A stretch of 64,000 bases of DNA from Eledone cirrhosa (GCA_964016885.1 OZ024745.1:108562001-108626000); one strand, 5' to 3'. Shown: positions 19,220 to 58,958, numbered from the stretch's first letter. Numbers and translations: made by a program. The notes: a model not told the origin generated them from the sequence alone.

Positions 19220-19280
19220 TATTCTATTATATATATTTCAAGGGTACCAAAACTTTGGTACGCCCTCATCAGATAAAATA
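19220..19280 (-). ncRNA. Type I hammerhead ribozyme (minimal stem III)
   Basis: Reverse complement of the 19413-19473 ribozyme. Confidence 0.7.
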
Positions 19281-19412
19281 CAAAGTTTGTTTTATAAATA
19301 TTGACATAACCAGGAAAGAAGAACTTAATGGTTCAAGTTTATATCCAGGAAAAAACTTGAACTGTTAAGTTCTTCTTTCCTGGTTATGTCAATATTTATA
19401 AAACAAACTTGG

Positions 19413-19473
19413 TATTTTATCTGATGAGGGCGTACCAAAGTTTTGGTACCCTTGAAATATATATAATAGAATA
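19413..19473 (+). ncRNA. Type I hammerhead ribozyme (minimal stem III)
   Basis: Stem I TATTTTAT/ATAGAATA; CTGATGA 19421-27; stem II GGG.GTACCAA/TTGGTAC.CTT; GAAA 19454-57; stem III T-ATAT-A; cleavage triplet ATA (after 19465). Confidence 0.72.
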
Positions 19474-19857
19474 AATATGGTTTTATAAATATAGTTTCCA
19501 TTTATTTAATATCATTGTATATTTATATATATATATATATAATAATAATTGTTTCTACTTTTGGCACAAGGCCAGCAATTACCCAGTGCATTACTGGTAC
19601 TTTATTTTATCGACCCAGTAAGGATGAAAGGCAAAGTTAACCTCGGCAGTGAAGACTAAAATCCAAAGAGGGCTCGATAAGGATAAATATATATCAAGTA
19701 TATAAGAAATTTTAATCTGTTATTTTAATAAATATATATATATATATATATATATATATATATATATATATATATACACATATATATATATATATATATA
19801 TACACACACTCATACATATACTGTCCTAAGACTGGCATAAATTAGTGTGTATATATA

Positions 19858-20690
19858 TACGAGGTGTGTCAGAAAAGTTCCAGGACTGATGTCATGAAAG
19901 ATTTATTTCAAACCCAAACTTCACACTAAGAGTTTTCTCCTTCAAAGTAATCCCCCTGGAGTCTAATGCACTTTTCCATCCCTTTCTGCCACGCTTGCAT
20001 GCACTCCTGGAAGGATTCTTCTGGGTTCCTCTGCAGTTCCGTCATCACGGCCTTTTTGATGTCATCCATGTCTTCAAAACGGGTGCCCTCCAGGTCGTAC
20101 TCGAAGATTCATGACACATCACTGGTGAAGACTGTCCCTAGCAAGTCTGGTTCGATTTCAAGATGCTCGAGGATGTCCTGGCACACTTGCATGCGTCGAC
20201 CCTTCTGGTCATCGTTCAGCAGTTTTGGCACCATCTTCACGCAGACTTTCCACATGTCCAAATCTTCAATGAGAATCTTCCAGACGCTGTCCCGATTAAT
20301 GCTCAGCTCATTTGCCATCAGTCGAACAGTCAGCCGACGATCGCTACGCACCATCTGCCTGACGCGCTCAACATTGACCTCAGGGCCTTCCACTCCTGGG
20401 GTCATCTTGCACCACTTAAAAACATGTGAGCGTGACATCGTCTCATCTCCATACACTTGCTGCAGCAATCCCAGTGCTTCTGACGGTGTTTTCAAGTTTG
20501 TTCGTTGCTCTGTGCTCATTGCTTGTTGACCTGAAACAGAGGACATGTATATAAAATTATGAAGAAAAAAGTTTGATCGCTGCAGCGAGCTAAGATTACA
20601 GTTACATACTCCAGGGGGATTACTTTGAAAGAGAAAACGCTTAGTGTGAAGTTTGGGTTTGAAATAAATCTTTTGTGACATCAGTCCTGG
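19858..20690 (-). mobile_element. Internally deleted mariner transposon with ~85-bp inverted ends
   Basis: EQRTNLK..QQVYGDETMSRSHVFKW..DRRLTVR..KVCVKMVPKLL..DQKGRR (mariner N-terminus) and C-terminal MEKCIRLQGDYFEG. The left end is TA|CGAGGTGTGTCAGAAAAG. Confidence 0.9.
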
Positions 20691-55318: not shown

Positions 55319-56208
55319 CAGGGTGCGGACGATAACTGTTTGCAAGATTACTGTCTAGGAAGAAATAACACAGTAGTTTTATTTTTTAAGATATATTTAT
55401 CAAACTTGGGTCAGTTTGTCTTCATCACTTGTTCTTTTAATCTCACTTGATAAACCCGCCATTGGCTTTGATGACGGCCTCAAGGCTGCCTCGGAACCGG
55501 CTACAGGCCTTCATCACTGTCCCCCAACTTAGGCCCCTAAAGGCACTTGTGATCCTGGCCTTCAGATCGTCTTTCATATTGCAGCTAGATCTGTTGGTGT
55601 CTCGTTCCACTGCAGCCCACACAAAGAAGTCAAGGGGGTTGCAGTCAGGCGAGCTGGGAGGCCAGATGTCAGGTGAAGTGTGGTCAACAAAGTTCTCTGA
55701 CAGCCAGGCTTGGGTCTTTCAGCTGGTATGGCAGGGCGCTGAGTCTTGCTGCCACACGTACAGTCTACCTGCAGCTACCTGGTCGATCCAGGGCTTTACT
55801 ACCTTGCTCAGAACGTGGATGTAGCCATCGGTGTTCAGCTTGAGGCCCTCAAGGAAGAAGTGAGGTGGCATGACGTCACCTTGACTGCTGACGACACCTA
55901 AGACCAATGTTGTTGCTGGAAACTGTCTGCATGACTCTGGGCACGTCTTTGGATGAGACAGTGTGCCACCTGTTGTTCTGGGAGTTGATCTTCTGGTCTT
56001 ATTTGTCCTTCCGGCGCGGATTCCAAGAAGAACTCCGTGTCTCTTCCACAAATTTGGAGGTTCAAAATTATTCATAATCAATTATTCTGAAAATAAATAA
56101 TGGAAATATAGTCACTGTTTTTATGAAGACAAGAGTGACAATGGAAGTAAAAAAAATTTGCATAAAATTAGCAGTTGAAAATTGCTAACAAATATCACCC
56201 ACACCCTG
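55319..56208 (-). mobile_element. Internally deleted DD37D (maT-type) Tc1/mariner transposon
   Basis: CAGGGTG..CACCCTG|TA ends. VLGVVSSQG..PPHFF..WQQDSAPCHTS*..WPPSSPDCNPLDFFVW has 37 residues between the two Asp by my count; one in-frame stop. Confidence 0.88.
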
Positions 56209-56879
56209 TATATGTCATCATCATCGCTGTTTTACGTCCATTCTTCTTCTACGCTAGCATGGGTTAGACGAGTTGTCCTGTTGTGGGCAATGTTAGGTCA
56301 GGTGACCATGCCTTGCTTATACAAAACTGACTTTTGTCTGGTTTCTACAGTTGGATGCCCTTCCTAACGGCAACCTCATTTACAGTGCGGACTAGGTACT
56401 TTTTGCTGTGATACCTACCTATAATGTTATATTTGGGGATTGTCATGTTGTCAATATTACTAATATATATATATATATACACACACACACAGAGTACACA
56501 CTGTAAAGTAGTTAGTATTAAAAAGGGCATCCAGTTATAGAAAATTTCCAAACATGGGGTTGAGAGGACTGCAGTTATATCAAGGCAGAGCAATCTCTCT
56601 AGCATAAGGGCCATGACAAAACATACCCAGTACTCTCTGTAAAATGTAGGAATGTATGTAAGTGAGATGTGGTTTCTCTGTCTATTTGTGAGAATAGTGG
56701 CTCTGATTGAGCGTTGAGTTGCTCAGTTATGACCCATCCAATGTATGGTAGTATAGAAAAGAGGACATATGATGATAATATACATATGTATATATGTGTG
56801 TGTGTTTATGTATGCAGATGTGTGTGTGTTTATGTATTATCTATGCAGATGCACACACACACACACATTATATATATAT

Positions 56880-57236
56880 GGAGGCACATGGCTTAGTGGT
56901 TAGAACATTGGCCTTGCAATCGAAAGGTTGTGAGTTCAATTCTCAGACCGGGTGATGCTTTGTTTCCTTGAGCAAGACACTTTATTTCACATTGCTCCAG
57001 TTTACTCAGCTGTAGAAATGAGATGATAGGGACTGGGGTCCCTATCATTCCACTGCAAAGTGGTCGTGGAGGGGCCACGGCAAAAAAGCACCCAGCACTC
57101 ACTGCAAATGAGGTTGGCGTTAGGAAGGGCATCCAGCTGTAGAAATCAAGCCAGGATCAGTTCCCGTCCCACCCTTGCAAGCAGGGAAAAGCGGACGTAA
57201 AATGATGATGATGATGATGATGATGATGATGATGAT
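56880..57236 (+). mobile_element. SINE family A
   Basis: Full head, body and (ATG)n tail. Confidence 0.85.
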
Positions 57237-58567
57237 ATATATATATAGATATATATACATACCATCCTCATCATCATTGGTGGATTGGCAGTATCGGTAG
57301 AGGGTCGGACGCCATGCTTTGATGCATAGAGTTACGGCCCTTTCCAATCTGAGTTCAAATCCCGCCGAGGTTAACTTTGCCTTTCATCGTTACGGGGTCG
57401 ATAAAATAAAGTACCAGTAATGCACTGGGTATTTGCTGACCTTGTTCCAAAAGTAGAAACAATTATATACATACATACAAAAACTCAGACACACACACTC
57501 ATATATCATGAGAGAGAGGGGGGAAGAGAAGGACAGAGAGAGGGGGAAGAGAAGGGGAGAGAAAGAGGAGGAAGAGAAGGGGAGAGAGAGATGGAGAGAG
57601 GGAGATGTACATCCAAATGAACCAAAACTGCCTGAAACTTTCTTCAGTTCTCATTTGGTTAATTCAGTTGACTGTTGGGAATTGTCAAGGAAGAGTAAGG
57701 AGAAGAGGAATGAGGGGAGAAGGGAGAGAAAGAGGGGTTTGGGGGGAGGGGTAAATAACTAGTGACCAGTTAAAGGTGCCACTTATAAATTATTGATGTC
57801 CAACTCCTATGTGTTGAAGTAGTAAGATGTAGCTGTGTAACCATGTAGTCATATAAGGTGGTGTAGTGTAATAACAATGGTGGTGGTAGTGGTGTGTGAT
57901 ATGTGTTTGTGTGTGTGTGTGTGTCCTTGTATGTATGTGCTTGTGTGTCTGTGTGTGTATATGTTGTTAGAGTTAATGAAAGACCAATATGGCCAGGTAG
58001 AATAAGTGGGGGTGGACCTGTAAGATGCGCGTATTGAAGCAAGGAAGTCACTTCATAAATCTCCTGATTTCTGTCAATGTGTTTTCAAGGATAACCCAAC
58101 CAGATCTTGGGTCTCACAGCTATCAGGATGTGTGTGTGAGTTTGTGTGTCTGAATGTATGCATGTATGCATGTATAGATGTATATATGTATTGTGCTTGT
58201 ATGGGGATTTGAGTAAGTTTGTCTGTTGCTATATGTGTGTGTGTATATGTATGTATAAATAAATATATTTATATATATATATAGTATTTTCCGTTCCGTA
58301 GTGTTGTAAAATTCCTTTTACTGAACTGTATCCATTTAAATCCTTCTATATATATATATATATATATATATATATACACATATATATATATATATATATA
58401 TATATATATATATATACACACATATATATATATAAATATATACACACATACACATATATCTAAGTTTGAGTGCATGTTTGTATGTATATATTATGGTGCT
58501 TGTATGAGGGTTTGAGTGTCTGTATATAGTATGTATATATATATATATATATATATATATATATTAT

Positions 58568-58958
58568 ATATCACATAAGAAACAGAGAATCAGTGGTGCG
58601 ATGAATAAAATTTATTAGACATATTACAATCGTTTCTCTGCCGACCAGCTCGAGGCACGATCAATGCAATGATCGAGCCTGACTCTGAAATCGCAAGATC
58701 CTCAGATACGTCTTGATTCTACGAAGCAGAGTTTCCAAATCTTCCAAATCTTGGAAACTCTGCTTTGTAGAATCGATCATTACATCAATCGTGCCTCGAG
58801 CTGGTTGCCAGAGAAACGATTGTAATATGTCTAATAAATTTTATTTGTCGCACCACTGATTTTCCGTTTCTGATGTGATATTATACTCTGCTCTGTAAGA
58901 GCATCGAGTGCTCAAACGGCCTACTGCTTACGGATAATTTAAGCATCCCACACCTATT
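58568..58958. mobile_element. Fold-back Penelope-like element with hammerhead and bulged hairpin
   Basis: Arms ~58568-58737 and ~58751-58881. The right arm lacks the CTGAGGA segment. (TA)n on both sides. Confidence 0.78.
58618..58712 (-). ncRNA. Type I hammerhead ribozyme with extended stem II and minimal stem III
   Basis: Stem I GACGTAT/ATATGTC; CTGAGGA (58705-58699); stem II TCT(T)GC/GCAGA extended by AGGC.CGATCA/TGATCG.GCCT; GAAAC-GATT-GTA; AATAAA immediately 3'. Confidence 0.82.

Follow-up and report, generated by a model that had tools for sequence, protein, structure and literature searches.

Predicted hammerhead ribozymes at the 3′ ends of Penelope-like elements and in non-coding tandem repeats of Eledone cirrhosa

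We analysed a stretch of 64,000 nucleotides from Eledone cirrhosa (GCA_964016885.1 OZ024745.1:108562001-108626000; hereafter the window), for which an original prediction had described type I hammerhead ribozymes in several repeat families. Our results indicate, with a probability of about 85%, that these motifs are hammerheads predicted to cut, located at the 3′ ends of Penelope-like elements (PLEs) and in non-coding tandem repeats that are likely PLE passengers. The hammerheads would cut the RNA of their own elements, and the minimal stem III forms (families A, C, D and I) would need dimers or the help of a protein to do so. Because Hydra-1_Obim, an element of Octopus bimaculoides with a hammerhead, has already been published (Files S1 and S2 of PMC8557442), the core finding is of a known kind. 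Beyond it lie a permuted hammerhead in one family (J), fixed non-canonical cores in two others (H and G), and a rule by which inverted copies combine a short and a tailed end.

To locate the motifs, we scanned the window with a strict type I descriptor (stem I of at least 4 pairs, stem II of at least 3 and stem III of at least 1). The scan gave six matches. In 100 block-wise dinucleotide shuffles it averaged 0.08 matches and never exceeded 2, and the reversed window sequence gave zero. The matches comprised three copies of family A, one each of B and D, and a family E motif at 41398-41457 (+) that the original prediction had missed. All six cores that it had reported were present at their coordinates and on their strands, and five passed the strict test. 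The remaining one (39701-39840) failed because positions 10.1/11.1 are C·A, the sole failing position; stems I and III are whole, as is the long stem II, and C·A was common to all 12 family C loci listed. The six cores represent four families yet five insertions, as the motifs at 19220 and 19413 are the two arms of a single inverted insertion. A relaxed descriptor returned two additional matches in the window (shuffle mean, 0.48). With the strict descriptor, the 80 kb flanking the window held four more matches and 12 further regions picked by pattern matches held 12, and the reversed control was zero for both. The features carrying these hammerheads in the window are as follows.

19070..19541, inverted family A insertion in (TA)n; tailed arm on the minus strand with its tail at about 19070-19166, short arm on the plus strand; Hydra-clade PLE end
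19220..19280 (-), family A type I hammerhead; stem III minimal and palindromic; predicted cut after 19228
19413..19473 (+), family A type I hammerhead; predicted cut after 19465
30889..31690 (+), family B, retrozyme-like; 686-nt non-coding unit in partial tandem
31324..31407 (+), family B type I hammerhead; stem III full, stem II branched; predicted cut after 31401
39513..39851 (-), family C stub with the long (tailed) end; Hydra-clade PLE end
39701..39840 (-), family C type I hammerhead with a 105-nt stem II and C10.1·A11.1; predicted cut after 39709
41333..41490 (+), family E stub; inverted tail at 41333-41389, type I hammerhead at 41398-41457
44897..45226, second family A insertion; hammerhead at 44963-45023 (-) on the short arm, tailed arm cut within the ribozyme
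58568..58981, family D fold-back insertion with a truncated tailed arm; the short arm bears the intact hammerhead at 58617-58713 (-); Hydra-clade PLE end

The type I layout (CUGANGA, GAAA and UH in C-G-S order, with stems I-III) was present in families A, B, C, D and E. The family motifs held across hundreds to thousands of copies in the 3.0-Gb genome, with reversed-pattern controls of 0-1. In descriptor-filtered sets, the core was kept in 21/21 and 13/13 family A copies, 12/12 for B and 20/20 for C; a pattern listing showed the family D core to be conserved as well. Two of the families that the original prediction had credited with partial cores proved to be fixed for non-canonical ones. First-look genomic candidates numbered 2,207 for A, 3,923 for B, 1,104 for C, 3,695 for D, 748 for E, 917 for F and 1,295 for J, figures that are not copy numbers. 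A loose genome-wide hammerhead pattern had uneven strand counts and a large control, and we left it out as a count. In 1.7 Mb of enriched fetched DNA, about 30 motif clusters had at least three members, part of them subfamilies or noise.

We then asked what these motifs belong to. Long copies of A (3/5 loci), C (2/7), E (4/8), G (10/10) and H (9/10) carried Hydra-type reverse transcriptase (RT)/GIY-YIG sequence upstream and in the same orientation, and family D showed the same link in 3/25 loci, with colinear alignments. An earlier walk from family D had found 0/20 links, and the endonuclease at one locus (L295) was rejected as a D partner, having a hammerhead of its own. Family I had a CCHH-type endonuclease upstream in two copies. 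For family B, one of 25 loci held a 686-nt tandem dimer and no open reading frame (ORF) was consistently associated with it; family B is a tandem unit resembling non-LTR retrozymes, with one hammerhead per unit. At one locus (L081), a Poseidon-like ORF has inverted ends made up of a relative of B (67% alike). The suggested connection with PLEs and retrozymes is thus borne out, through ORFs in A, C, D, E, G and H and through tandem units in B and J. Within the window itself, tblastn found no Penelope-like ORF piece, its only matches being to a stretch of short interspersed nuclear element (SINE) inside one query, in agreement with the stated absence of an RT or GIY-YIG ORF there. A PF01541 search gave 10,595 candidates and Neptune/Poseidon-type ORFs; none of the 40 loci taken from it was linked to A, C, D or E, and one (L060) was linked to family I. 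A search for protein homologues yielded 567 relatives, mostly unnamed.

The linked ORFs carry the motifs by which PMC8557442 defines the Hydra clade: RW(R), DKT, a CxCx5C linker, CxxC..E and CxH, with no CCHH. Upstream of the RT, RWK and DKT both occurred in G and H, and DKT in E; the A, C and D pieces end short of this region. A C-terminal GIY-YIG domain with CxxC and CxH and lacking CCHH was found in A, C, D, E, G and H, the linker being unseen in the short C and D pieces, and all six families combine (TA)n insertion with a 3′ hammerhead. By eye, the family E ORF closely follows Hydra-1_Obim. The ORFs of E, G and H are 41-52% identical to one another, as against 20-35% over short stretches to Neptune/Poseidon-type ORFs of the same genome. 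Family F is tentatively placed in Hydra. The window motifs are almost certainly the 3′ ends of Penelope-like elements, mostly of the Hydra clade. The families had been called unrelated, and the only blastn match between the five ribozyme regions was 11 nt. This holds for the RNA ends only, because most of the families share one PLE clade.

Several side observations concern PLEs. In seven loci (L213, L214, L216-L220), the family E 3′ untranslated region (UTR) held two versions of the ribozyme region, the terminal one and a diverged (~92%) copy lying about 1.1-1.2 kb further upstream, and at L258:600-1700 a family C-like end is joined directly to a family H 3′ UTR and ribozyme, possibly a chimera. 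Two loci (L071 and L073) contained open Neptune-type PLE frames of 938 and 1,096 amino acids, and the descriptors used found no hammerhead near their 3′ ends. Near Neptune-type ORFs (L084:7279 (-), L090:3847 (-) and L215:6785 (+)), we saw a hammerhead-like motif with a stem II region of about 90 nt and two different yet paired stems I of 8-9 bp.

The insertions have a regular structure. Within a family, the 3′ side of a copy has two fixed stops in (TA)n, the short and the tailed end, while the 5′ cut points vary and the inversion points differ between copies. Most copies are 100-400 bp long, and most stubs are head-to-head pairs. Among 171 scorable inverted pairs, 155 joined a short to a tailed end, seven were short+short and nine tailed+tailed (an earlier first count of mixed pairs had given 87/97); solo arms were short in 159 cases and tailed in 98. 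The short+tailed combination was found in 38/39 pairs of family G and 30/34 of family H, whose loci had been chosen independently of their ends. Two points reduce the force of these counts: 26 further inverted pairs were left out with one arm unscorable, and the D and F loci were fetched by palindrome queries, possibly inflating the rule.

The simplest account, which we consider reasonably probable, is dual-end priming. The endonuclease would nick both strands of a TA repeat, reverse transcription would begin at two internal RNA sites (the short and the tailed end), one per DNA strand, and two early-terminated cDNAs would join head to head. Such priming and joining would yield 100-400-bp stubs that over-represent the ribozyme. 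For the anole Poseidon element PAc, in vitro work described two internal RNA start sites bounding the tail, with both strands cut and extended at an AT-rich target (PMC11167929). Arm-specific start sites in inversions are not the question of that paper in the parts available, and the count of 155/171 bears on them; the short+tailed rule serves as a genomic prediction of how PLE inversions form.

These structures also bear on two other explanations. Most copies are short, non-coding and palindromic, and B and J form tandem arrays without an ORF link, as would be expected if the motifs were complete, independent units, ribozyme-bearing and similar to SINEs, to miniature inverted-repeat transposable elements or to viroids, rather than truncated PLE ends. 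However, six families have long copies that continue colinearly into Hydra RT/endonuclease sequence, which refutes this explanation for A, C, D, E, G and H, and the fixed 3′ ends, variable 5′ ends and differing inversion points also speak against it. It is true only of B and J, both retrozyme-like, and as a general account it is very unlikely. Chance matches in AT-rich repetitive DNA do arise with loose descriptors, as the two extra relaxed matches indicate, and fold-back junctions create false CUGAAGA cores. Nevertheless, six strict matches where 0.08 were expected, conservation across whole families and near-empty reversed controls refute chance for the motifs listed here, and its overall probability is negligible.

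Hammerheads on PLEs and on units that likely ride on them are our preferred explanation, although several observations weigh against it. Rfam returned no hammerhead among the 150 window matches listed of 179, nor in three narrow scans, and Pfam had no match for three Hydra ORFs. The Hydra-clade call comes from motifs and by-eye comparison with File S1, not from a tree. For family F, the ORF link was found in just 2/20 loci, across a microsatellite. Cutting by all of the hammerheads described here is predicted from folds; eight of nine Xenopus retrozyme dimers were not cleaved in vitro (bioRxiv 10.64898/2026.07.22.740005), so a good fold is no guarantee of activity.

Partial cores had been proposed for about five more families. 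Those at 4494/32402, 38830 and 39418 proved to be cut fold-back arms of families with full hammerheads elsewhere. The sequence at 29621 was not the core; the 3′ half of the family I hammerhead lies nearby instead. The features concerned are the following.

4460..4572, family F fold-back; both arms incomplete
29383..29530 (-), family G stub
29587..29890, family I fold-back; canonical PLE end of the CCHH type, with the hammerhead 3′ half at 29770-29794 (-)
32344..32419, decayed fold-back of family F
38698..38891, family H fold-back; tailed arm on the minus strand, short arm on the plus strand; core CAGAAGA (U4A), stem I 5′ strand lost at the junction
39244..39460, family G, fold-back made of the hammerhead 3′ half; complete family core (U/C)UGA(G/U)AA

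Families H and G have altered cores. The element of family H carries an ORF and is 3.26 kb long; its long copies are about 94-98% alike, and a full open frame is absent from all of ten long copies. Its core, CAGAAGA, had 16,251 exact genomic matches, and A4 was present in 100/100 among the matches listed. A nucleotide other than A at position 4 was found in 207 copies, split over G, C and T, which fits random decay. A candidate canonical-U4 sister of H, with 884 matches, was rejected, as 20/20 inspected copies were fold-back junction products without stem I. These junctions (L395-L414) generate false CUGAAGA cores, so hammerhead counts based on the motif only are inflated in such genomes. In family G, A8 was present in 100/100 among the matches listed (of 2,482). 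About half of the family has the U3-A8 swap, and 1,206 copies have an uncompensated C3·A8; the latter form their own subfamily, as five copies were 91% alike and 73% alike to five U3 copies. Canonical cores have U4 together with C3-G8 or U3-A8, a combination lacking in H (U4A) and in the C3 subfamily of G (C3·A8). Otherwise the core of both families is unchanged and stems I-III persist, stem III being long, and five long H and G copies contained no second hammerhead in any block order. Families F and H have U·U at positions 10.1/11.1, F together with a 4-bp stem III; this closure is known and common in Hydra elements (PMC8557442, File S2).

Published work is informative on the likely effect of these changes. 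In a comprehensive mutagenesis, all single and double mutants of the CUGA turn were weakly active, except the 3-8 swap (PMC9901934), and covariant U3-A8 is known from Schistosoma (PMC4209133). Families H and G-C3 likely cut poorly, and we lean towards the view that U4A strongly impairs cutting in H. Since H and G-C3 are likely poor cutters, cleavage is probably not required by every ORF-bearing family for its spread. Somewhat less probably, RNAs with U4A and C3·A8 are naturally active because stem III, tertiary contacts or an element protein makes up for the change, with cleavage still required. Both families keep the other core positions, all stems and a long stem III, U4C retains enough activity for viroid infectivity (PMC3088659), and the anole PLE hammerhead cleaves only with protein (PMC11167929). 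Against such rescue stand the low activity of the CUGA-turn mutants other than the 3-8 swap and the youth of H and G, which leaves little time for losing other core positions. We did not find U4A in an animal element in the literature searched, although such variants may be listed in supplementary material to Eckert 2023, Cervera 2014 or Perreault 2011.

At 21030, where a partial type I core had been proposed, the window contains a complete predicted hammerhead of a different topology, in which GAAA lies 5′ of CUGAUGA.

20696..21108 (+), family J; 0.84 of a non-coding 494-nt tandem unit, truncated on the 5′ side and ending 3′ in (TA)n
20958..21041 (+), family J predicted type-SGC hammerhead, non-circularly permuted, stem II opened after pair 10.1-11.1; likely kink-turn; predicted cut after 20985
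20984 (U16.1), 20985 (H17), 21002-21005 (GAAA) and 21029-21035 (CUGAUGA), all (+), family J core positions

The family J pattern had 9,906 genomic matches (control, 0). J is often tandem, with periods of 493-637 nt and up to 4+ units, and its 3′ ends lie in (TA)n. A de novo S-G-C descriptor run over 1.9 Mb returned 23 distinct sequences, all of the J family group, with one reversed match. For the J alignment, near-identical rows were merged and three rows were excluded, L446 for its deletion and two others as not belonging to the family, reducing 44 rows to 24 and then to 23. Across these 23 variants, the 26 pairs of the structure were 95.5% paired and 15 had changed on both sides; none of 500 shuffles scored as high, and slid controls were 33-43% paired. 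Double-sided change occurred in 6/6 pairs of stem I, 5/6 of the joining helix P4, 2/4 of distal stem II and 1/5 of stem III, and also at pair 10.1-11.1, which was paired in 20/23. The core was invariant in 23/23 except for N7, with A15.1-U16.1 in 23/23, and H17 was A in 11, C in nine, G in two and U in one.

J thus has the S-G-C block order, an intact core and covarying stems I and III. Type I, II and III and standard SGC arrangements were all rejected by pairing tests; the standard SGC stem II partner pairs in only 31-42%, and the 5′ strand of stem II does not directly follow CUGANGA. Because the strand after CUGAUGA lacks stem II beyond its first pair and a 5′ strand supplies the rest, J can be described as an SGC hammerhead reopened within stem II. 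A conserved UUAA linker connects stems I and II, whose other sides are joined by P4. Between this joining helix and stem III, tandem G·A letters and a 3-nt bulge are conserved in 22-23 of 23 variants, presumably in keeping with the kink-turn consensus, and a kink-turn is likely in the modelled structure. The nearest likeness to J is the type-SGC hammerhead HRIMA-1 with its variants (PMC10085705): both have the S-G-C order and an intact core, and in both the strands of stems I and II are connected by a short linker on one side and by an additional helix on the other. As stem II of J comes mostly from the 5′ end, J is a permuted variant and not HRIMA-1 itself.

The modelled fold of family J is very probably real, and self-cleavage of J RNA is likely, if less secure. 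J would cut tandem transcripts into units of 0.5-0.6 kb, which would probably be mobilised by a Naiad-type enzyme. Some features count against these proposals. The outer helix P0 showed zero double-sided change and was unpaired at one pair in 6/23 variants, and two of 23 variants had G17. The variants are relatives, and the structure was drawn from the same sequences, so the counts are support and not a probability. By-eye comparison with one published sequence, Naiad_Obim, placed all six elements of the J fold at its 3′ end. No autonomous J partner was found in the genome, the Naiad partner search giving 0 matches; one 3.2-kb repeat inspected as a J partner turned out to be a duplicated nest of small elements. 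It is improbable that J is instead a box C/D-like or other protein-binding RNA, with CUGAUGA and UGAUG as C/D boxes. The weak Rfam matches of J were indeed C/D small nucleolar RNAs (E 1.4-1.9, far under the cut-off) and its kink-turn letters are conserved, but GAAA, A15.1-U16.1 in 23/23, a variable H17 and covarying stems I-III meet as a hammerhead core requires, and the tandem context is retrozyme-like.

Compared with known systems, the families resemble the endonuclease-bearing Hydra-clade PLEs (PMC8557442) in RWK/DKT, CxCx5C, the lack of CCHH, (TA)n targets, a 3′ type I hammerhead, the common U·U closure of stem II, inverted 5′-truncated copies and tails. They differ in number, with at least six families that each run to thousands of copies, and in dimensions: the 3′ UTRs measure about 1-2 kb, the tails about 60-190 nt as against 30-40 nt, and stem II reaches 105 nt. 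The Hydra cores in File S2 of that paper are all CUGA..GA, none with U4A or A8, unlike H and G. The PLE and minimal hammerheads of PMC4209133 share single or inverted motifs and palindromic minimal stems III with the families described here. That paper reports low in vitro activity and many hammerhead families per genome, mostly truncated PLEs and often in opposite orientation; the parts available contain no U4A or C3·A8 family, permuted form or named cephalopod. The dense ribozyme-bearing system proposed for this genome is the expected debris of 5′-truncated PLEs and already in print.

B (686 nt) and J (493-637 nt) resemble non-LTR retrozymes in that each unit is non-coding, holds one hammerhead and is repeated in full or partial tandem (PMC7229834; bioRxiv 10.64898/2026.07.22.740005). 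The published retrozymes in the available parts of these papers are type I, whereas J has the S-G-C order, and B and J are known here from DNA alone; no RNA holder was listed for B, which counts neither for nor against expression. S-G-C hammerheads have so far been described almost only from environmental RNA. We did not find the J motif in literature on SGC hammerheads since 2023 or on Naiads and permuted hammerheads. The main text of the O. vulgaris repeat annotation (PMC13282606) has 0 mentions of "ribozyme" or "hammerhead", and the available text of the 2020 retrozyme paper (PMC7229834) does not mention "octopus" or "cephalopod".

The role of PLE hammerheads has been called unclear, with Naiads reported to lack them (PMC8557442), and cleavage was dispensable in vitro for the anole PLE (PMC11167929). 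The permuted J hammerhead escapes standard descriptors and Rfam, yet it is readable at the published Naiad end. A joint reading, in which J is active in ~10,000 retrozyme copies and is the missing Naiad ribozyme while H, the most prolific of the Hydra families examined, has spread to >16,000 copies with a crippled U4A core, falls slightly short of an even chance. If it is true, animal retroelements use a wider hammerhead repertoire than described, and ORF-bearing PLEs need the fold or the tail, not cleavage, with H as in vivo evidence. The window supplies natural test cases for this: a young, abundant U4A family, a C3·A8 subfamily and canonical sister families as controls.

The window is otherwise full of microsatellites and small repeats. 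At 19860-20690 (-) lies a transposase remnant with terminal inverted repeats and an ORF at 20109-20705, which we take to be Mariner/Tc1-like; family J begins at its edge. A SINE-like repeat of ~190 bp, which contaminated one protein query, has about 25 copies in the window, often head-to-head (5577-5956, 8143-8336, 19543-19647, 39997-40244, 54109-54502 and others). Long simple tandem arrays occupy 24986-26633, 37511-38558 and 60173-62352 (a 12-mer x138, a 4-mer x262 and GT-rich blocks). Elsewhere in the genome, a nine-unit tandem array with a period of 311 nt (G000:C1:1241766-1244284; L039) carries a minimal hammerhead core in each unit.

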